DNA of 64,000 nucleotides from the NCBI GenBank assembly GCA_028713005.1, contig JAQTPC010000004.1, positions 2,745-66,744 of the forward strand. The letters are read 5' to 3'. Position 1 is the first letter of the stretch; each line of letters begins with the position of its first letter. The notes under the pieces are model-generated. The model made no database searches. It was not told the origin of the DNA and saw nothing but the letters and a program-made list of their open reading frames with translations. This document shows, piece after piece, positions 5,240 through 38,908 of this stretch. Made by a program: the position numbers and the translations under genes. This DNA comes from Minisyncoccota bacterium. Lineage in GTDB: Bacteria > Patescibacteriota > Minisyncoccia > Phycocordibacterales > PALSA-1337.

Positions 5240-5278
5240 GTTTAAATATATAAATCGTCTCCTGGATGCAGTACCTAG

Positions 5279-5365
5279 CGGAGAGAGTGGGATTCGAACC
5301 CACGGTTCCCGTAAGGGAACGGCGGTTTAGTAAACCGCTGCCTTAAACCACTCAGCCATCTCTCC
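5279..5365 (-). tRNA. Type-II (long variable arm) Ser-like tRNA; anticodon loop UUACUAA gives apparent anticodon ACU
   Basis: Reverse complement folds as acceptor GGAGAGA/TCTCTCC, D-arm, anticodon stem GCGGT/ACCGC, 18-nt variable arm, T-arm GTGGG-TTCGAAT-CCCAC and discriminator G. It aligns with E. coli tRNA-Ser. A34 is unusual. Confidence 0.6.
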
Positions 5366-5464: not shown

Positions 5465-5551
5465 GGAACCGTGGTGGAGTGGTCTAACATACCTCTTTGC
5501 TAAAGAGGCAGGCCTTAACGGGCCTCGAGGGTTCGAATCCCTCCGGTTCCG
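5465..5551 (+). tRNA. tRNA-Ser (anticodon GCU)
   Basis: Acceptor GGAACCG/CGGTTCC, anticodon stem CCTCT/AGAGG with loop TTGCTAA, long variable arm, T-arm GAGGG-TTCGAAT-CCCTC, discriminator G. Confidence 0.8.
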
Positions 5552-5603
5552 CACACAATTTCTCGCTGAACCAAAAATCCTGTACATATCGTATAATACT
5601 CAT

Positions 5604-11010: not shown

Positions 11011-11164
11011 TTATCTGTCTATCAACCCAACGCACGTGCGTTGGGTTTTTATTTTTACACGCAAGCCAATAATACATCTATTTGTCCGCCCTCCTGGATT
11101 CGTGTCTCCATCGACACGCTCCACTGAGCGCCAATGACCCCAGAGGGCTTTTAGTGATTGATTG

Positions 11165-11238
11165 TCCGCCCTCTTGGATTCGAACCAAGGACCCCAGAGG
11201 TATAAGCTCTGTGCTCTAACCAACTGAGCTAAGGGCGG
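11165..11238 (-). tRNA. tRNA-Ile-like with anticodon UAU (loop CUUAUAC)
   Basis: Reverse complement CCGCCCT-TA-GCTC-AGTTGGTTA-GAGC-A-CAGAG-CTTATAC-CTCTG-GGGTC-CTTGG-TTCGAAT-CCAAG-AGGGCGG-A forms a canonical cloverleaf. Confidence 0.7.
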
Positions 11239-14512: not shown

Positions 14513-14635
14513 GTGTGGTTATAATGTTCATAGTTTTTTGATGTAAATGTATCTAACTCCAAAATATAAATTACCACATGGAATGGTTATAGTCAATAAA
14601 AGAAAACACCGACTAAAGCCGGCTTTTTTAATGTG

Positions 14636-14999
14636 TGGAGATGGGCGGAATTGAACCGCCGTGCAATCGAAGTTCGTCGAGCGACTCTACGGTGATAGAA
14701 TCCTTTGAAGTTTAATGACTATGCTAACAAAGAAAACAAAGCACATAGTCACGATCTCATTGTTTCAGGAGATAGAGTGAGAAGCTCTATCTACCCTACA
14801 TCCAAGTTATTACGCCTTGCTTACTGTTAGGATCCCAGTGAGTAGACGGCCTCGTTAGACGAGAGCGAATTGAAAGTCTTTGACTCCAAAAAATGGAGAA
14901 ACAATAGATTTTGCAATTGGGTTTTCCAGCGGATTTACGAGTCACTGGTGCTCGCACCGCACGAACGAAAACTGTCGATTGTCGATGCCTTGCATCCCC
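14636..14999 (-). ncRNA. ssrA: tmRNA (SsrA)
   Basis: 5' GGGGATGCAAGGCATCGACAATCGACAG and 3' ...GGCGG-TTCAATT-CCGCC-CATCTCC-A. The acceptor stem GGGGAUG/CAUCUCC carries the G3:U70 alanine identity pair. It lies adjacent to smpB. The candidate tag frame GCA AAA ... GCU CUC GUC UAA runs from RNA nt 86. Confidence 0.8.
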
Positions 15000-22625: not shown

Positions 22626-22861
22626 ATGTATTAAATTAATTAGCCACAGTATAGCAGATGAGCTTCATTTACCTAAATCATACTCATTGACTGAAAAACT
22701 ACCCGTAGTGTATGCTTACGGTACAACAAAATAGTTATTCAGAGTGTGGCGAGAGAACTAGCTCAATGACCCACCAGCAACTCTTCGAAAGAAGTAAGTG
22801 CTCAATCTAGCCCGAAAGGGAAAGATGCTATATCTCGTATTAAAACGATATAAGAATAGTA

Positions 22862-27811: not shown

Positions 27812-28198
27812 TTACCAAATCTTAAAGAGGATTTCTCCGCCAAGTTTGAGCTTTTTTGCATCGACGTCAGTCATGATACCCTTTGAAGTAGTGAAGATGG
27901 TGTTACCAAAACCACTACGGAATGAGCGAATGTCTGCTGCTTTCTGATAAAGACGGCGTGATGGCTTTGAGATACGTTCTACACCGTTGATACGTGGTAC
28001 GCCATCAAAATAGACGAGACCAAGCTCAATCTCACGCTTTGTCTTACTCTTTTCTACAGAAGAGATATAGCCGGCCTTCTTGAGAACATGAGCAACATTC
28101 TCAGAGAGCTTCGATGCGATAACAGTGACTGATGCTTTCTTTGCATCACTGCTATTCTTGATACGTGTTATGAGGTCTGAAATAGGGTCTGTTACCAT
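27812..28198 (-). CDS. rpsH: 30S ribosomal protein S8
   Basis: [13 protein letters not shown] motif. Confidence 0.9.
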
Positions 28199-28377
28199 GA
28201 TGATTTCTTTATGCCTGGGATAATACCTTCATTGGCGAATTCACGGAAACAAATACGGCAGAGGTCAAAATCACGCATATAACCGTGCTTACGACCACAA
28301 CGGAAACAACGACGAACAACACGCGAAGCAAACTTCGGTGTTCTCTTTGAGCGTGCAATGACTGCTTTGGTTGCCAT
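28192..28377 (-). CDS. rpsN: 30S ribosomal protein S14 (zinc-binding type Z)
   Basis: 61 aa, [23 protein letters not shown] (C4 zinc ribbon). Confidence 0.85.
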
Positions 28378-28547: not shown

Positions 28548-28943
28548 CTATGAGTGGGGTGGCTGAGATGCTAATGCGTATATTTCGAGGAAATCAATTT
28601 TAGAAGTAACTGTCACTTTACATCCAAAAAACCGTGAACAATGTATCAACTCATTTGGCGAAGCAATTATAGCCATATGTGTCCAAATGAGATTTGAGGT
28701 ATTTGCTCTCCTTTTGAAAAACACACTATGACCAACTGGCATGAGATTAAACTCTTCCGGCGAGAGATGAAAATCTGTAGGCGGATACCCGGCATCAGTA
28801 AAAGCGGGCATTTCGATACCAGCTTCACGATACACTTCAATAACGAAATGAACGCAATGGAATGTATGCCAATCAAAAGGTTTTCCAAGATAGTTATGTG
28901 CAATTGTAACGATAGAGTTCGACAATGATGGTGAAAGAATCAT
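28548..28943 (-). CDS. NlpC/P60-family (papain-like) peptidase/amidase, small standalone
   Basis: The catalytic Cys context FHCVHFVIEVY and His context THMAII...ELIHCS are consistent with the C40 Cys-His-His architecture. Confidence 0.5.
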   Translation of the reverse strand: MILSPSLSNSIVTIAHNYLGKPFDWHTFHCVHFVIEVYREAGIEMPAFTDAGYPPTDFHLSPEEFNLMPVGHSVFFKRRANTSNLIWTHMAIIASPNELIHCSRFFGCKVTVTSKIDFLEIYALASQPPHS

Positions 28944-29137: not shown

Positions 29138-30220
29138 TTAGATATTAGTACTATTTAACGATGACGACATTATCTTACATGAAGCTGTAGATCCATCGTC
29201 AAACGCAACACCATCTCCGCTCACGGCAGCACTGTCATAACAATAACTTGAGCCAGAAGAATTTAAAACTGCAGAGATAGCATACGTCTCTCCTTCCGCA
29301 TAACAGGTAACAACATTTTTATCTTTTAACTGAACAAATACTGAAGCAAATGATGCGTCCGCAAACATTCCTTGTGAACAGCTTCGAGTCTTTGAATATG
29401 TATTATTATCTCCATAATAAACTTCTGCTTGAGTTCTTAACTGACTAAGCACTGTTCTGACTTGAGCATCTTGTCCTTTTTGGCGAGCAGAACTCAGTGC
29501 AACAAGTACAACCGATGACATGATACCGAATATTGCAATCATTGGGAGAATGCAAGCGATGATAATACCTACGACTAGACCAGCAGTATGAGGTTTAGCT
29601 GGATCTTTATATATCACAACACTATGTGCGAACATATCATGCAATCCTTGTTTCTTTGCCGTAAATCCAGCAATAATAAAACCGATACAAAGAATAATTT
29701 GAGAAACAAACTTGCCAAGAGTTTCGCGTAACAAAACTTTACCGAATGAAAGTTTTTCAAAGCTATCTGACTTAACAGTAATACCAACCAGCATTTTTCC
29801 AAGGGTCGCGCCGGAATAATATGTCATCAAAGTGAAATATGTCCATGTCAGAAGCAATGAGACAACATAAGATAATGCCCCGGCAGTCTGTGTAGCAGAT
29901 CCTGGGTTTTTTATTAAAATCAATCCTAAAAGAAACTGCGTCATGGCAATCGGTATAGCAATAATCAAGCTATCAACCATGATCGCGACAAATCTAACCC
30001 AAAAACCAGCATATTTTACATTTACAGGAGGAGTTGGAACAGTACCTGTAGGTGCAACTGGATTGTGAGCTGGCTGATTGAGTTCGAGAGTTGCAAAAGC
30101 ATCATTTACATCGACAAGATTCCATCCACCAGCACTTACGAGATTTTGTTGTATAGACTCTTTTGTTAAACCTTGTGCTATCTGTTGTTTGACGTACTCA
30201 AGCAATTGCGTATTTGCCAT
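29138..30220 (-). CDS. Membrane protein: conserved N-terminal helical domain + RDD-family domain + C-terminal type IV pilin-like region
   Basis: The N-terminus is paralogous to the next gene. RDD core runs RFVAIMVDS...YYSGATLGKMLVGITV. The C-terminal hydrophobic helix is followed by SSARQKGQDAQVRTVLSQLRTQAEVYYGDNNTY (pilin-like) and a Cys pair. Confidence 0.5.
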   Translation of the reverse strand: MANTQLLEYVKQQIAQGLTKESIQQNLVSAGGWNLVDVNDAFATLELNQPAHNPVAPTGTVPTPPVNVKYAGFWVRFVAIMVDSLIIAIPIAMTQFLLGLILIKNPGSATQTAGALSYVVSLLLTWTYFTLMTYYSGATLGKMLVGITVKSDSFEKLSFGKVLLRETLGKFVSQIILCIGFIIAGFTAKKQGLHDMFAHSVVIYKDPAKPHTAGLVVGIIIACILPMIAIFGIMSSVVLVALSSARQKGQDAQVRTVLSQLRTQAEVYYGDNNTYSKTRSCSQGMFADASFASVFVQLKDKNVVTCYAEGETYAISAVLNSSGSSYCYDSAAVSGDGVAFDDGSTASCKIMSSSLNSTNI

Positions 30221-30264: not shown

Positions 30265-31467
30265 TTATTTAAATGTAAAACTTGAGACAATACTCTCAGC
30301 ATCCTTTATCAAACTTAAGCCTCTATCTAGACTTGATTTGAATACAACACTGTATAGTGTGCCTCCATGCACTGCACTATATTGTAATATAGCCTCTCTT
30401 GCCGACTGATCTGAACCTGTACTGCTAACTGTAAAGGCTATCACAACCGCCTTTTCACCACTCAATGTACTTGAACTTACTTTACCCAATACTGCACCTG
30501 CAAATTCTGATTTTATAATCGTATCTACATTTTCAGAAGTGATGATTTGGTCAACCGAATCGATCAGTCCGGATGTATCAGGTATAGGTGTTATAGCAAC
30601 ACACATGATATAGCCTGAAGCAGAACTCGAGGCTTGCACACCCTGTCCCCCATTTGAGGTTACACTTGGTTTCCAACCTCTAGGTAGAGTAAACGAGTAC
30701 AATGCATTATCAACAATGCTCGATTTAGATTTTAAAGGAGATACCTGGGTATTCACTACTGGCACTTGACTGGTCTTTTTTGTAAACCTATCAGTAACTG
30801 ATTGAACTAGGTTTGGTTGGAAAAAATAAACATATGCACCAGCGCCGACAAAAGCACATATAATAAACACGAAAATCAAAATAAGAATACCTGAACGACG
30901 TGGTGAAGATGATTGCTGCGGAACAACAAACGCTTTTGATGCCACAGTTTGTGGCATCGAAGAAAAGCTTGGTGGTGGAGTAAATGTTCGTGGTGGTGTT
31001 GGAATTGGACTTGTCTGATATTGTTGAGCAAATGTTGCAGGTGGTGGCTTGGGAAAGCTAGCAATCGGTTGACTTGTCTGAACAGGATTTGATGGATACT
31101 GTGATACGGATGATACTGGTGGTTTTGGTGTTGAGATAGGTGTAGGAGTAATCTTGATTTCAATAGGTGGTTTAGGTGCGATCGGAGGTGCAGTGAATTG
31201 TGGTTTTGGAGCTATAACTGGCGTTGATACGGGCACAGAAACTACTGGTATTACTGGGGCTGGAGTTGTGGGCACAAAAACTTTTGGACTTATTGTCGCT
31301 GTTGGCGTTTGACTAGTAACTACACTATGACCGAGTGCTATAAACGCCTCTTTGATATCAACTGCACTCCAACCACCTTCCGCAATAAGTTTTTGTTGTA
31401 CAGCTTCTGCACTCGAACCATGTGCCAGTTTATATGAAATGTAATCAAGTAATTGTTTATTTGTCAT
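30265..31467 (-). CDS. Single-pass membrane protein with same N-terminal domain, Pro-rich linker and extracellular C-terminal domain
   Basis: MTNKQLLDYISYKLAHGSSAEAVQQKLIAEGGWSAVDIKEAF is about 50% identical to the N-terminus of 29138..30220. It has a PT-rich spacer and a TM segment ILILIFVFIICAFVGAGAYVYFF. Confidence 0.45.
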   Translation of the reverse strand: MTNKQLLDYISYKLAHGSSAEAVQQKLIAEGGWSAVDIKEAFIALGHSVVTSQTPTATISPKVFVPTTPAPVIPVVSVPVSTPVIAPKPQFTAPPIAPKPPIEIKITPTPISTPKPPVSSVSQYPSNPVQTSQPIASFPKPPPATFAQQYQTSPIPTPPRTFTPPPSFSSMPQTVASKAFVVPQQSSSPRRSGILILIFVFIICAFVGAGAYVYFFQPNLVQSVTDRFTKKTSQVPVVNTQVSPLKSKSSIVDNALYSFTLPRGWKPSVTSNGGQGVQASSSASGYIMCVAITPIPDTSGLIDSVDQIITSENVDTIIKSEFAGAVLGKVSSSTLSGEKAVVIAFTVSSTGSDQSAREAILQYSAVHGGTLYSVVFKSSLDRGLSLIKDAESIVSSFTFK

Positions 31468-31533: not shown

Positions 31534-33378
31534 TTACAGAAATAACCTCACCAACCTGATCTCCTCAAAGGTGAAACTACTGCCGAGGATATTTTTGACC
31601 GGCGAAAGTGCTCTACCACCCCCCTCTTGCATGCCCACTGCATGAAACGCCATAGAAATCTTTTTGAAACGTGTAACGGGGAGTGCATCACGAAGATGTG
31701 AAATATTCCATGTAGGATCTTCTCTTTTCTCATGTTCTATATGATTGAGGATAGTATCAAAAGATAGACCGCGCTCCGTTGCTACTTCACGGACAGATTT
31801 TCCCATGTCGATGAGGCTGCGAGTCACCTCTGCAGTAGGTATCTTTGGTTTTTTACCTTTTCTGGTTCGTTTAACCGCCTTTGCTCGATCTGCAAAATCT
31901 TCATCAGACTCACCGTCTTCTTTTGTCACCGGATCAGGGCCAAGGAATTTCTTTTGTCGAACATTGAGATCATCAGCTGATAACCCCATAAAATGGGCTT
32001 GGGCTTTTTTTGATTGTTCACGAAAGTGCTTATCGAATTCATATGCTTCCGGATGGATATGCAGGGCCATATCATTGAGTCCTGCCAAGGTAAGGCCGAG
32101 GAGCGACCGTACACGCGAGAGCGCTACATAACCCATACCCTTCTCAAAAGAACGTGACAGGTCGATATGTGCAGCGTCGAGAGACATGCCCTGACTCTTA
32201 TGGATGGTTATAGCCCATGCGAGGCGTAGAGGATACTGTTCAATCTCAGCCAACGTCCTATCTCCCTCATCGACACGCCAGCTTTCGAGTGGTACATCTA
32301 TCTCTCTACCATCAAGCGTTTTGACGACGATACTGTCATAGGTACATTCAGCGACAATGCCACGTGTGCCGTTGGCATATCCAACTTCCCAATTATTTTT
32401 TACAAACATGACTTGTGCGCCAACTTTAAGCCTGAGAACCTCAGGCGCCAAGCAAGATTTCTTTAAACCTTCAATGAGCTTTTTGTTCCCGTGTGAAATC
32501 ATCTTATACTCCAAGAATCCCCCAGGAACTGCATTGAGCTCGCGATCATTTTCGGCATCAACATCGCTATTGTGAGAATAGAGTCGTGTTGCTTTTATGT
32601 TTTCAGTTAAAATCGTAGGAATTTCAATAGGAATATCTGTTTCGCTTTTCTTTTTAACTTCATCTTCATCACCGATAAAGACCACGTCTTCTTCAGAACC
32701 CATGTGCTCATCAGTTAAAAACTCTATGCCATCATCCTCTTTTTTATTACGAGAAATAATACGGCCATTTAATAAGTCCATCATATCTGTTGAGAGCGAC
32801 TGGGCACGAATACCATTTAAAATTCCAACATACTCCTTGTCCAACTGACGATGTTGCTCTTCGAGATAACAGACAACAAAGTTAGCCTCCTTCCAAGCCT
32901 TTGAATGATACGCGAAATACGCATCAGGCTCGCCCCCACGAGATATTGGAGGCAATTGGAAAAAATCTCCACACACCACAACCTGTAAGCCTCCGAATGG
33001 CGCGTCTGACTTACGAATCTTCTTCACGATTTCATTTATGAGATCCAAACGAAAATGATGGAGCATGGATATCTCATCGATGATAAGAACTTTGGCCGCT
33101 TCTATCTTTGTCTTTACATAACTCTTTTCTGATATTTCCTCGAGATCTTGTTCTGAGAGAGTGTCGCGTACGCCGACACCAGACCATGAGTGGATCGTGA
33201 CGCCGCCCATATGGGTCGCTGCGATACCAGTAGAAGCTGTGATACCAACGGGTATTTCTCGTTCACGTAAGCACTGTAGATATTCTCGAAGAACATAGGT
33301 TTTGCCGCTGCCCGCTGGTCCGGTCAGAAAAACGTTCGCTCCTGTTTTGAGGATATTTAATGCTTCAGCTTGGGTCAT
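31534..33378 (-). CDS. Pif1/RecD-family 5'-3' DNA helicase with C-terminal HTH-like extension
   Basis: Walker A GPAGSGKTY, Walker B LIIDEISM, the GDFFQLPPI motif, and C-terminal ITIHKSQGMSLD...YVALSRV. Confidence 0.75.
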   Translation of the reverse strand: MTQAEALNILKTGANVFLTGPAGSGKTYVLREYLQCLREREIPVGITASTGIAATHMGGVTIHSWSGVGVRDTLSEQDLEEISEKSYVKTKIEAAKVLIIDEISMLHHFRLDLINEIVKKIRKSDAPFGGLQVVVCGDFFQLPPISRGGEPDAYFAYHSKAWKEANFVVCYLEEQHRQLDKEYVGILNGIRAQSLSTDMMDLLNGRIISRNKKEDDGIEFLTDEHMGSEEDVVFIGDEDEVKKKSETDIPIEIPTILTENIKATRLYSHNSDVDAENDRELNAVPGGFLEYKMISHGNKKLIEGLKKSCLAPEVLRLKVGAQVMFVKNNWEVGYANGTRGIVAECTYDSIVVKTLDGREIDVPLESWRVDEGDRTLAEIEQYPLRLAWAITIHKSQGMSLDAAHIDLSRSFEKGMGYVALSRVRSLLGLTLAGLNDMALHIHPEAYEFDKHFREQSKKAQAHFMGLSADDLNVRQKKFLGPDPVTKEDGESDEDFADRAKAVKRTRKGKKPKIPTAEVTRSLIDMGKSVREVATERGLSFDTILNHIEHEKREDPTWNISHLRDALPVTRFKKISMAFHAVGMQEGGGRALSPVKNILGSSFTFEEIRLVRLFL

Positions 33379-33437
33379 GGGTGCTAGTATATCACCTCAA
33401 ATAAAAAATCCCGACACAACCTGTGTCGGGAGCGATA

Positions 33438-34607
33438 CTAGCAATTCTTCCAAAGCGAGCTCAGGCTCGGATTGCGTGCCAACGAATAATTTGAATAATC
33501 GAGATCATCCGTCACATCTCGCGATTTTCCGAGAAAATCCGGAAGCGAGACTTGGTCGTTCGCATCCGTCAGCTCGATCTCGAGCATAACCAACCCTTGA
33601 TGTAGGCCTAAGAATACATCCAGCTCAAAATACTGATCTTTGTAAACAAAGGTTTTACGAGTCTTTGTGACAGGACAGCAGTCGGGCTTGGCGAATCTCA
33701 GCAACCGAGTGAACTCTGAAGCAGTAATGATGCTTTCAGTTTCATAACGCCCGAAACTACCAGAAAATCCTGGCAGCGTCTTTTTGATCGTCCGATAGCA
33801 CGTCGTTATCCCGCGCCAGGTGCGCATGCGGATTCGTTCATCCCCTTCTGGAGTCTTGATGTAATACTGAACGATTGAGACGTTCTCGTGAGGAACCGAA
33901 ATCAGAGGCTCATTTTTAAGATGGAACTTCCGTTCAATCTCAATCGGCACTGGGATACCGAGAATATGAGTGATCGCTGCAACAGACTTCCGCACCTTAG
34001 TCTGCAGGTCGATGAAACCACCGTTACCATCTGTATTACTGATAACGACGAGATGAGGATGATGGATCCACGAACGTAACGTCCTTTCATCAAGCTCTTT
34101 CGCTTCCTCGACTGTTTCTCGGCGAGCAATGTTATTGGCGCATGTGTAAAGATGTGGCGCATCATATGCCAAACTGCGCAGATAGATGACGCCCTTATAC
34201 GGAACTTCCCCAAGCAAAGCGGCATCATAGCCCAACTTTTCGGCCATTTTAAAGAATACATCGGGTGAGATATAAGCCGAACCATCGAGACGACCTCGAT
34301 CGGTCAATATAACCTTGTGTTTTGCCTTGATACACTTCATCGCTTGGTGGTAGCGATATTCGCGTTCGACGGAAGCGAGAAGTATCTGCGTTTGGAAATC
34401 TTCTGGTGAACCGAAATCACCGAAAGAAAGCCCGTGAGTCGCAAATTCAGTTGCGATCTCAGGAACAACACAGGCATGAACCCCTTTGTCTTGAAGATGA
34501 CGGGTAGACTGCGCTAAGACGGTTGATTTTCCAGCACAAGCGCCACCTGTTTCAGCAATTGTCGTAATGTCACTTAATGCTAATGGATGAACGATTTGGT
34601 TGAGCAT
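33438..34607 (-). CDS. Fusion protein: AAA_28/NadR-like P-loop nucleotide kinase domain + CYTH (triphosphate tunnel metalloenzyme) domain
   Basis: N-terminal P-loop ETGGACAGKST, with a C-terminal domain opening on the CYTH hallmark EIERKF (ExExK). Confidence 0.55.
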   Translation of the reverse strand: MLNQIVHPLALSDITTIAETGGACAGKSTVLAQSTRHLQDKGVHACVVPEIATEFATHGLSFGDFGSPEDFQTQILLASVEREYRYHQAMKCIKAKHKVILTDRGRLDGSAYISPDVFFKMAEKLGYDAALLGEVPYKGVIYLRSLAYDAPHLYTCANNIARRETVEEAKELDERTLRSWIHHPHLVVISNTDGNGGFIDLQTKVRKSVAAITHILGIPVPIEIERKFHLKNEPLISVPHENVSIVQYYIKTPEGDERIRMRTWRGITTCYRTIKKTLPGFSGSFGRYETESIITASEFTRLLRFAKPDCCPVTKTRKTFVYKDQYFELDVFLGLHQGLVMLEIELTDANDQVSLPDFLGKSRDVTDDLDYSNYSLARNPSLSSLWKNC

Positions 34608-34705: not shown

Positions 34706-34735
34706 AAAAAAACCACTCAAGGTGGTTTTTTCTTA
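34706..34735. terminator. Terminator after rplE
   Basis: AAAAAACCAC-TCAAG-GTGGTTTTTT. Confidence 0.5.
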
Positions 34736-34750: not shown

Positions 34751-35323
34751 CTATTTCTTTCCTTTCTTGTCATCCTCCTTCTTGAGTGGGAGACCGAGGT
34801 ATTCGAGGAAACCGAGAGTCTGTGCTCTGTCACTTGAAGTTGTGACGAGAGTGATAGCAAGACCGAAAACATCCTTGAGGTCTTCATCTGATGTTTCTGG
34901 GAAGATAGTGTGCTCCTTGATACCGATCGTATAGTTGCCCATAGCGTCAACAGAGTTGCGTGAGAGACCGCGGAAGTCCTTTGTACGAGGGAGAGCGATG
35001 TTGATCAAACGATCCATGAAATCAAACATGCGTGGACCACGGAGAGTAATCTGATAACCGAGCGGATCGCCAACACGAGTCTTGAAAGTAGCGATGGCTT
35101 TCTTTGCGGCACGGGGAGCTGGCTTTTGACCAGTAATGCGTGCGAGACGCTCTGCAATGATCTCGATCTTTTTCTTATCCTTCACAGAACCGAAACTACT
35201 ACTGACAACCACCTTCTTGAGCTGTGGAGCCTGCATAGCGTTTTTGATATTCAACGTATCTTTGAGAGCTTTGAATGATTCTTTGTTGAGTTCGAGAACT
35301 GTTTTTTTGTGAGTAGTAGTCAT
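34751..35323 (-). CDS. rplE: 50S ribosomal protein L5
   Basis: L5 consensus throughout (PRMFDFMDRLINIALPR...). Confidence 0.9.
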   Translation of the reverse strand: MTTTHKKTVLELNKESFKALKDTLNIKNAMQAPQLKKVVVSSSFGSVKDKKKIEIIAERLARITGQKPAPRAAKKAIATFKTRVGDPLGYQITLRGPRMFDFMDRLINIALPRTKDFRGLSRNSVDAMGNYTIGIKEHTIFPETSDEDLKDVFGLAITLVTTSSDRAQTLGFLEYLGLPLKKEDDKKGKK

Positions 35324-38548: not shown

Positions 38549-38908
38549 TTAATCATTGTAACTGAATTTTCCAAAGCACAAACATTCAGATGTAAAACCA
38601 ATATTAATTTGATCAAATGATACTCCAGCAAACTGCTTTCGCACACCTTGCAAAAAGTGTTCGAAAACACAGCCTGGTTGTAGTGGGTCCACTGGATGAT
38701 TGTTCAGTGGCGGTATTTGCTCGTCTGTGAGTGGTGCATGATAATCGCAGGGCTCAAAATATAGATAGTAGTTTTCAATGCGCATAGTTAAGGCACAAAA
38801 GTGATTACCCTTGTAACTCCTTTGAGCGAACTCGACGATTTCAAAAACTGTAGGCCCTGAATCAAGACCTACATATATTAACATCGGAAATTCTTCATCT
38901 GCATTCAT
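38549..38908 (-). CDS. Hypothetical protein (119 aa) inserted between rplB and rpsS
   Basis: ORF with natural-looking composition and no family recognised. The L2 terminator precedes it. Confidence 0.4.
   Translation of the reverse strand: MNADEEFPMLIYVGLDSGPTVFEIVEFAQRSYKGNHFCALTMRIENYYLYFEPCDYHAPLTDEQIPPLNNHPVDPLQPGCVFEHFLQGVRKQFAGVSFDQINIGFTSECLCFGKFSYND

Follow-up and report, generated by a model that had tools for sequence, protein, structure and literature searches.

A bacterial protein family joining a kinase-like P-loop domain to a CYTH triphosphate tunnel, examined from a patescibacterial locus

In plants, fusions of a P-loop kinase with a triphosphate tunnel metalloenzyme (TTM) domain are represented by TTM1 and TTM2 of Arabidopsis, and both modules are needed for the role of AtTTM2 in development (PMC9582702). 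In this study we describe a bacterial protein of comparable design, which joins an AAA_28 P-loop domain to a CYTH tunnel domain and is encoded at positions 33438 to 34607 of a 64,000-nucleotide stretch of DNA from a Minisyncoccota bacterium (contig JAQTPC010000004.1; the whole stretch is referred to below as the window). The fusion is real, widespread and uncharacterised in the literature searched, yet it is already visible in databases, which catalogue a large family with the window gene as an ordinary representative. An intact tunnel resembling that of the inorganic triphosphatase NeuTTM and an intact kinase-like domain occur in one chain, which offers a tractable place to seek a natural substrate pair; whether inorganic triphosphate (PPPi) exists in cells, and why enzymes specific for it should be needed, are questions still asked in the literature (PMC3440374).

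TTM1 and TTM2 are the closest analogue of the window protein among the systems compared. In both an N-terminal P-loop small-molecule kinase precedes the CYTH/TTM domain, and Foldseek aligns the two domains in the same order with the plant structure (PDB 7Z67). The plant kinase, however, is of the uridine-cytidine-kinase/PRK type (PF00485), whereas the window protein carries AAA_28 and has no PF00485 match at E<=0.1, and the whole-chain template-modelling (TM) score of 0.25 at 9% identity to 7Z67 indicates that the packing differs. AtTTM1 is without the metal-binding glutamates that the AAA_28-CYTH family retains, and the plant proteins bear a C-terminal transmembrane anchor where the window protein stops about 10 residues past CYTH. 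Fusions of the TTM1/2 type have been described as limited to Viridiplantae and Amoebozoa, and the plant and bacterial fusions are probably of independent origin.

Other described proteins resemble one half or the other. NeuTTM (NE1496 of Nitrosomonas europaea) is a stand-alone, specific inorganic triphosphatase of about 150 residues, while here the tunnel is covalently tied to a kinase-like domain and the family adds an invariant third arginine (R258) ahead of the RxR motif. YgiF-type CYTH-CHAD proteins likewise place a CYTH tunnel in a two-domain protein, linked to tri- and polyphosphate metabolism, with CHAD instead of a kinase as the partner. NadR of Escherichia coli combines HTH_3, NMNAT and AAA_28 domains; by Pfam the window protein has neither the helix-turn-helix (HTH) nor the NMNAT domain, its CYTH domain follows the kinase, only the P-loop aligns, and relatives in Firmicutes that do possess an HTH still have no NMNAT domain. 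Thymidylate and deoxynucleoside kinases differ in that the window protein scores far below the TIGR00041 family cut-off.

Domain composition and catalytic residues

The features of the fusion gene and its product are listed below, with conservation counted in an alignment of 168 family sequences.

33438..34607, minus strand: coding sequence of the AAA_28-CYTH fusion, ATG start, 389 amino acids (open reading frame list, exact protein match, Pfam on both halves)
33963..34568, minus strand: P-loop kinase-like domain (AAA_28; fold of the NadR ribosylnicotinamide kinase, thymidylate kinases and deoxynucleoside kinases), residues ~14-215
34521..34550, minus strand: Walker A motif (P-loop) T-GGACAGKST, residues 20-29; family consensus GGPCAGK[TS]T
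34293..34301, minus strand: D103-R104-G105 at the end of strand 3; D103 and R104 168/168, G105 165/168
34113..34148, minus strand: putative LID segment Y154-TCANNIARRET-165; Y154, R162 and E164 invariant, N159 near-invariant
33924..33959, minus strand: inter-domain junction G217-IPVPIEIERKF-228; G217 158/168, P219 165/168, P221 166/168
33474..33944, minus strand: CYTH/triphosphate tunnel metalloenzyme domain, NeuTTM-like, residues 222-378
33927..33941, minus strand: ExExK signature E223-I-E225-R-K227; E223 164/168, E225 167/168, K227 159/168
33822..33836, minus strand: RxRxR motif R258-I-R260-M-R262 in the tunnel wall; R258 168/168, R260 167/168, R262 166/168
33573..33581, minus strand: ExE metal-binding motif E343-I-E345 in the last barrel strands; E343 167/168, E345 141/168

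A preliminary description of this DNA had proposed an AAA_28/NadR-like P-loop kinase domain with a Walker A motif, followed by a CYTH domain opening with EIERKF, and both assignments are borne out. The N-terminal half matches Pfam AAA_28 (PF13521) over residues 18-190 with 49.9 bits, well above the gathering cut-off of 27 (E 5.3e-13); the model is matched by 34 of 34 sampled family members, and the P-loop lies exactly where it had been placed. EIERKF occupies residues 223-228, and the chance that its ExExK is coincidental is removed by the conservation of the entire set of tunnel residues across the family. The suggested structure prediction, made with AlphaFold2 from the family alignment, yielded a confident two-domain model (mean predicted local distance difference test 89.5, predicted TM score 0.89). 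The protein is identical to MDD5165261.1, named 'AAA family ATPase' in a metagenome-assembled genome (MAG) of Candidatus Paceibacterota, and comparison with an 88%-identical sister gene (contig L086) gives a ratio of nonsynonymous to synonymous substitution rates (dN/dS) of ~0.04, showing that the fusion gene is under strong purifying selection.

In the kinase-like half, the Walker A residues G21, G22, G26 and K27 are invariant; residue 23 is alanine in the window protein alone and proline in the other 167 sequences. E50 is invariant or nearly so. Judged from the range of the profile alignment and from textbook thymidylate kinase motifs, D103-R104-G105 would correspond by position to the DR[YH] of thymidylate kinases and the ERS of deoxynucleoside kinases, and the kinase fold places residues 154-165 as the probable LID. 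From fold and motifs together we infer that this half carries a phosphotransferase residue set, comprising the P-loop lysine, DRx and an arginine-bearing segment at the LID position, rather than being a bare NTPase. The 34-sequence family profile also picks up thymidylate kinases in PDB (E ~0.003, over the N-terminal 100 residues), and the thymidylate kinase model PF02223 gives weak matches in 9 of the 34 members. In one member (P0259, L171:1432-4032) a LAGLIDADG homing-endonuclease intein lies at the kinase P-loop; the sites that inteins prefer are conserved ones in important proteins.

The C-terminal half passes the Pfam CYTH model (PF01928) over residues 222-362 with 25.9 bits, the cut-off being 23.2 (E 1e-5). 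A PDB search with the single sequence returned only NeuTTM (3TYP/2FBL, E 2e-6), to which the family profile aligns at E 3e-18, and the window protein displays the eight-stranded beta-barrel tunnel, with a basic side opposite an acidic side, that defines CYTH proteins. Only 21 of the 34 members pass E 0.01 on the Pfam model; in a published similarity network of PF01928 the multidomain clusters are CHAD and PRK only, with no AAA_28 architecture listed, and these weak scores may account for the omission. Beyond the listed motifs, Q247, E291, K315/R317 and E328/D330 are invariant or nearly so, and the residues proposed as the catalytic dyad of NeuTTM, Tyr-28 and Lys-52 (PMC3440374), align with Y249 (168/168) and K275 (166/168).

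Motif rules published by Vogt et al. in 2021 (PMC8233210) allow the tunnel to be classed further. Cyclases carry HF four residues before ExExK (HFxxxxExExK), replace the first arginine of RxR by a small residue and have ExA in place of ExE; thiamine triphosphatases have W/YxRxR, the aromatic residue stacking on the thiazole ring. The CyaB-like HF of class IV cyclases is absent from the window protein, where the two positions are G217 and I218 (E, I, V or L across the family), the arginine expected to be small in cyclases (R260) is kept in 167 of 168 sequences, and no sequence has alanine at the E345 position. The position of the thiazole-stacking tryptophan of thiamine triphosphatases (NeuTTM alignment; PMC8233210) is held by R258, so that the aromatic residue is absent in 168 of 168. 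Since the gate-keeper arginine and the second glutamate of ExE are kept and the cyclase HF is missing, the CYTH half is by these rules of the two-metal triphosphate hydrolase type, and is neither a cyclase nor a thiamine triphosphatase. Conservation of the junction and the predicted TM score suggest that kinase and tunnel domains are held in a fixed arrangement.

An AAA gene paired with a CYTH gene on a plasmid of Paracoccus (H17) looked like a 'split' version and was set aside, since its ATPase proved to be ParA-like and unrelated to the N-terminal domain, and the extension reported by tblastn was spurious. The plasmid locus (Paracoccus marcusii pCP157_03, L168, 1-6701) reads pstB-phoU-phoB, then, further along, a CHAD protein, the ParA-like ATPase, a NeuTTM-like CYTH protein, a NUDIX protein and a second CYTH protein, and so links CYTH genes of the NeuTTM type with phosphate and polyphosphate genes.

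Spread and descent of the family

The fusion had been called unusual, a view that its distribution overturns. An indexed search retrieved 125 full-length relatives with the architecture of the window protein, and an exhaustive phmmer search of 1.84 billion cluster representatives gave 5364 matches at E<=1e-3 and 570 at E<=1e-30, nearly all of the best 150 being 355-400 residues long and aligned end to end. The AAA_28-CYTH architecture is accordingly present in at least 570 clusters (50% identity). In a set with one genome per species at least 560 stretches encode a relative, in more than 500 species genomes, and a metagenome scan added at least 531 further matching stretches. Labels such as 'CYTH domain-containing protein/predicted ATPase' already exist for some relatives in IMG, and the plant TTM1/2 proteins are a precedent for the general design (PMC9582702). 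Far from being a rarity, the fusion is a large, unnamed family that is common in several bacterial phyla.

Hosts include Patescibacteria (Nomura-, Sungii-, Lloyd-, Niyogi- and Saccharibacteria, Paceibacterota), Bacteroidales, many Clostridia, Erysipelotrichaceae and Bacilli, together with one Nanoarchaeia (DPANN) MAG and the actinobacterium Miltoncostaea, where the gene lies on a chromid. Genome-reduced Patescibacteria have kept the family, and gut Bacteroidales and Clostridia commonly carry it. In a neighbour-joining tree, 168 members fall into clades of 31 sequences from the candidate phyla radiation (CPR), 48 from Bacteroidales and 89 from Firmicutes; the tree tracks taxonomy and reflects mostly vertical descent of the fusion. 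No characterised member was found in the literature searched (full text, for CYTH with AAA_28, NadR or CPR), and the genome of Southlakia epibionticum, a strain with transposon-sequencing data, contains no AAA_28-CYTH fusion.

A phage origin was considered and rejected, as the phage collection holds stand-alone CYTH genes only and no full-length fusion, and IMG/VR holds 27 relatives in 2.9 million contigs, many of them at contig ends or on contigs above 250 kb. Phages of ~227-349 kb (H9-H11, the Xanthomonas phages PhiXhv-12/15/16; H7/H8; and H15, a Vibrio phage) have NeuTTM-like CYTH genes of the stand-alone kind, which are annotated as 'inorganic triphosphatase' or 'CYTH domain protein'.

Partner genes and proposed function

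Neighbouring genes were surveyed by clustering the open reading frames of 85 loci and by a Pfam census of 132 immediate neighbours, and neither revealed a neighbour conserved throughout the family. A conserved partner is absent from the sampled CPR and Bacteroidales loci. In Firmicutes, roughly 35 of 89 loci encode a longer form of ~435 residues with an in-frame N-terminal HTH of the XRE/Cro-C1 type (HTH_3 + AAA_28 + CYTH; for example L170:87-1391, L172:2656-3987, L173:2322-3632 and L174:2678-3985), and partners are found beside this form.

The first of these is the S component of an energy-coupling factor transporter (ECF-S), whose gene adjoins the fusion gene in 9 of the 89 Firmicutes loci, on the same strand, at a distance of 19-272 bp and in either gene order (L036:4233-4775, L040:7102-7662, L043:1601-2116, L077:3478-3891, L080:5234-5782, L092:1253-1768, L102:176-703). 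Every fusion gene so partnered is of the HTH-bearing form, and the fusion proteins of these loci are 58-77% identical to one another. The ECF-S genes match PF07155/PF12822 and fall below the NCBIfam cut-offs for RibU (riboflavin) and FolT (folate); a PDB sequence search with them gave no match, and a riboswitch search in ten ECF-S-linked loci found none. NadR works with the PnuC transporter. Because HTH_3 and AAA_28 are common to both proteins and a transporter gene adjoins, the HTH form may by analogy echo the logic of NadR, that of an enzyme and regulator beside a vitamin transporter gene, and could be an enzyme/repressor.

The second partner, protein X, is a protein of ~200-215 residues represented by ~200 clusters in gut Clostridia, with a disordered C-terminal tail that ends in KKKGFFxKLFGKK and suggests that the protein binds membranes. 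Searches of Pfam, PDB and PADLOC gave no match to it, and its predicted fold is confident yet without a structural match. Its gene adjoins the HTH form in 9 of 9 loci checked and in six loci lies 6-23 bp downstream of it (L170:1402-2040, L047:4759-5400, L112:1675-2316, L172:4001-4630, L173:3638-4264, L174:4001-4531). The HTH variants with their ECF-S and X partners provide genetic handles on the family. In addition, three closely related Lachnospiraceae loci place directly downstream of the fusion gene a gene for a VTC domain, a TTM resembling polyphosphate polymerases (L051:7309-8019, L074:7178-7924, L076:7221-7940), followed by a 223-residue predicted membrane protein and a large Gly/Pro-rich protein.

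Taken as a whole, domains, residues and distribution lead us to propose, with a probability of about 0.5, that the fusion is a stand-alone, vertically inherited, housekeeping-type bifunctional enzyme combining a small-molecule kinase and a tri- or short-polyphosphatase in one pathway. The N-terminal half would be an ATP-using P-loop phosphotransferase, most likely phosphorylating a salvaged nucleoside-like or vitamin-like small molecule, and the C-terminal half a NeuTTM-type two-metal hydrolase, whose most likely substrate is inorganic triphosphate, polyphosphate of very short chain length or the triphosphate terminus of a small by-product. A conserved, apparently rigid linker joins the two halves, which probably act at connected steps within a single pathway of salvage or phosphate handling. 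The domain identities, the intact catalytic residues, the distribution and, in the sampled CPR and Bacteroidales loci, the lack of a conserved partner are shown; the acceptor of the kinase, the substrate of the tunnel and the coupling of the halves are what we infer. Salvage in particular is suggested because 9 of the 89 Firmicutes loci put an ECF-S gene beside the NadR-like HTH form.

Several observations weigh against this proposal. The ECF-S link is restricted to the HTH-bearing Firmicutes branch, with 0 of 78 CPR and Bacteroidales loci showing it, and it need not apply to the CPR window protein. The score on the TIGR00041 dTMP-kinase model is 15.4 bits against a cut-off of 83.25. The second glutamate of ExE (E345) is replaced by lysine in 23 sequences and by arginine in 4, and these 27 of 168 may run a different chemistry. 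Finally, the AtTTM1 tunnel is catalytically dead and seems to regulate its kinase (PMC9582702).

This last point underlies an alternative that we judge unlikely, in which the CYTH tunnel of the bacterial protein serves as a sensor or autoinhibitory module that gates the kinase on a triphosphate, polyphosphate or phosphorylated ligand, with hydrolysis acting as a timer. The kinase of AtTTM1 is locked in an inactive state by the TTM domain, which enters its substrate site (PMC9582702); the domain order shared with 7Z67, with both domains aligned by Foldseek, the conserved rigid linker with the model's high predicted TM score, and the HTH-bearing Firmicutes variant, which implies a ligand-responsive protein, all count in favour of such gating. 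Against it, the bacterial tunnels differ from that of AtTTM1 in keeping all catalytic acids and bases, the Tyr/Lys dyad of NeuTTM included, and the poor superposition on the plant protein (TM 0.25, 9% identity) points to a different packing of the domains.

The bifunctional-enzyme proposal can also be carried further, tentatively and with little confidence in the whole. The kinase-TTM core might constitute an unrecognised salvage route that phosphorylates an imported compound resembling a nucleoside or vitamin, and in which the tunnel obligatorily clears a triphosphate species, either PPPi or a triphosphorylated intermediate; in that case the HTH form would be a novel NadR/BirA-type enzyme/repressor, controlling a new ECF-S specificity and protein X, and the CPR protein would be the bare enzymatic core kept in minimal genomes.

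It is doubtful that the fusion is a phosphotransferase linked to polyphosphate or triphosphate, whose thymidylate kinase-like domain would shuttle phosphate between nucleotides and tunnel-held PPPi or short polyphosphate in the manner of PPK2/PPK3, or whose tunnel would be a VTC-like polymerase. PPK2 is a P-loop kinase and PPK3 enzymes are exapted thymidylate kinases, both active on polyphosphate (PMC12995831), and the match of the N-terminal half to thymidylate kinases, the NeuTTM-type CYTH genes beside CHAD and pst/pho genes in Paracoccus and the VTC-domain gene after the fusion gene in the three related Lachnospiraceae loci are in keeping with such a role. Equally improbable is a nicotinamide-riboside kinase of NAD salvage, in which the N-terminal half would be a true orthologue of the NadR kinase domain and CYTH an accessory: the hhalign comparison with NadR of E. 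coli covers the P-loop alone (25 columns, probability 43%), thymidylate kinase and deoxynucleoside kinase structural scores are equally good, the NMNAT domain is absent, and PnuC is not among the 25 families most matched by immediate neighbours, the linked transporter being instead an ECF S component.

The locus in the window and the Pif1 helicase

In the window the fusion gene belongs to a block of ~6.2 kb that splits a ribosomal protein operon between rplE (34751-35323) and rpsN (28192-28377) and that includes the following further features.

31534..33378, minus strand: PIF1 + 2B + HTH_40 helicase, 614 amino acids (Pfam), given for context; the fusion gene lies 59 bp upstream
30265-31467, minus strand: 400-residue Pro-rich protein with a weakly PsbP-like C-terminus
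29138-30220, minus strand: 360-residue RDD-family membrane protein
28548-28943, minus strand: 131-residue NlpC/P60-like protein
33409..33431, minus strand: strong intrinsic-terminator-like hairpin with a 10-bp stem and 6 GC pairs, followed by TTTTTTATTT (terminator scan)
34706..34730, minus strand: weaker terminator-like hairpin AAAAACCAC-cttga-GTGGTTTTTTT, found by eye and not called by the terminator scan

The stronger hairpin, which is conserved in L086, separates the fusion gene's stop codon from the Pif1 start codon; the weaker one is upstream of the fusion gene, directly after the stop codon of rplE. Bracketed in this way, the fusion gene looks monocistronic. The sister contig L086 has the order rplE, fusion gene, the same terminator and then the start of an ORF6N-like gene in place of Pif1, and because of this exchange the position after the fusion gene is a variable spot.

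The preliminary description had drawn attention to the adjacent Pif1 helicase within an inserted cassette; the adjacency and the block interrupting the operon are real, whereas their value as a functional clue does not hold, since the adjacency is not conserved. A tblastn search with the window helicase found a PIF1-like gene within the fetched flanks of 3 of 167 other loci, namely L001, at a distance of 2.4 kb, and the adjacent cases L132 and L133, which have a Bacteroidales-type context, with sdh/frd-like upstream genes as in L004, and probably represent one lineage. By a rough order-of-magnitude estimate this is about the level of chance. A functional link to Pif1 was therefore rejected, as the adjacency is rare in relatives, the partner is replaced in the 88%-identical sister and the hairpins isolate the gene; the helicase context that set the window gene apart is incidental, as is the cassette. 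A mobile cassette was likewise rejected, the block being without flanking direct or inverted repeats and without a shift in composition, and no integrase being seen by Pfam among its five genes. The fusion is not a defence gene either: PADLOC-DB 2.0 returned 0 defence families for the window protein, PADLOC was negative for protein X and ECF-S as well, and the HTH variant matches generic HTH models alone.

These results bear on the proposal, also made in the preliminary description, that the fusion makes or degrades a nucleotide signal, possibly in a mobile or defence cassette with Pif1. The CYTH superfamily includes class IV adenylyl cyclases, the variable block lies beside Pif1, PIF1 + HTH_40 genes are found at L132/L133 and L001, and some HTH-form loci contain mobile or defence-like genes (TnpV, NikA, RelB, AAA_21+RloB); yet a signalling role is unsupported and can scarcely be credited, because under the motif rules the CYTH half falls among the two-metal hydrolases, with no HF and with the gate-keeper arginine and ExE kept, PADLOC is empty for the core protein and X, the link to Pif1 is near chance and lost in the sister, terminator-like hairpins isolate the gene, the family tree tracks taxonomy, and the phage collection and IMG/VR hold respectively no full-length fusion and the 27 relatives given above.

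Some further features of the window were recorded. The ribosomal operon is interrupted a second time by a 119-residue open reading frame (38549-38908, minus strand) between rplB and rpsS, where the sister contig has a 113-residue gene without a Pfam match (L086:3766-4107). The sole riboswitch of the window is an S-adenosylmethionine (S-box) riboswitch at 22732-22830 (plus strand; 50.6 bits against a gathering score of 44.4), far from the fusion gene. Two divergent tRNA-Ser genes (5278-5365, minus strand, and 5465-5552, plus strand) received anticodon calls of which one is an unusual ACT and the other GCT, a tRNA-Ile(TAT) gene lies at 11164-11238 (minus strand), and a transfer-messenger RNA gene at 14633-14999 (minus strand) encodes the tag AKSIVSPFFGVKDFQFALV.

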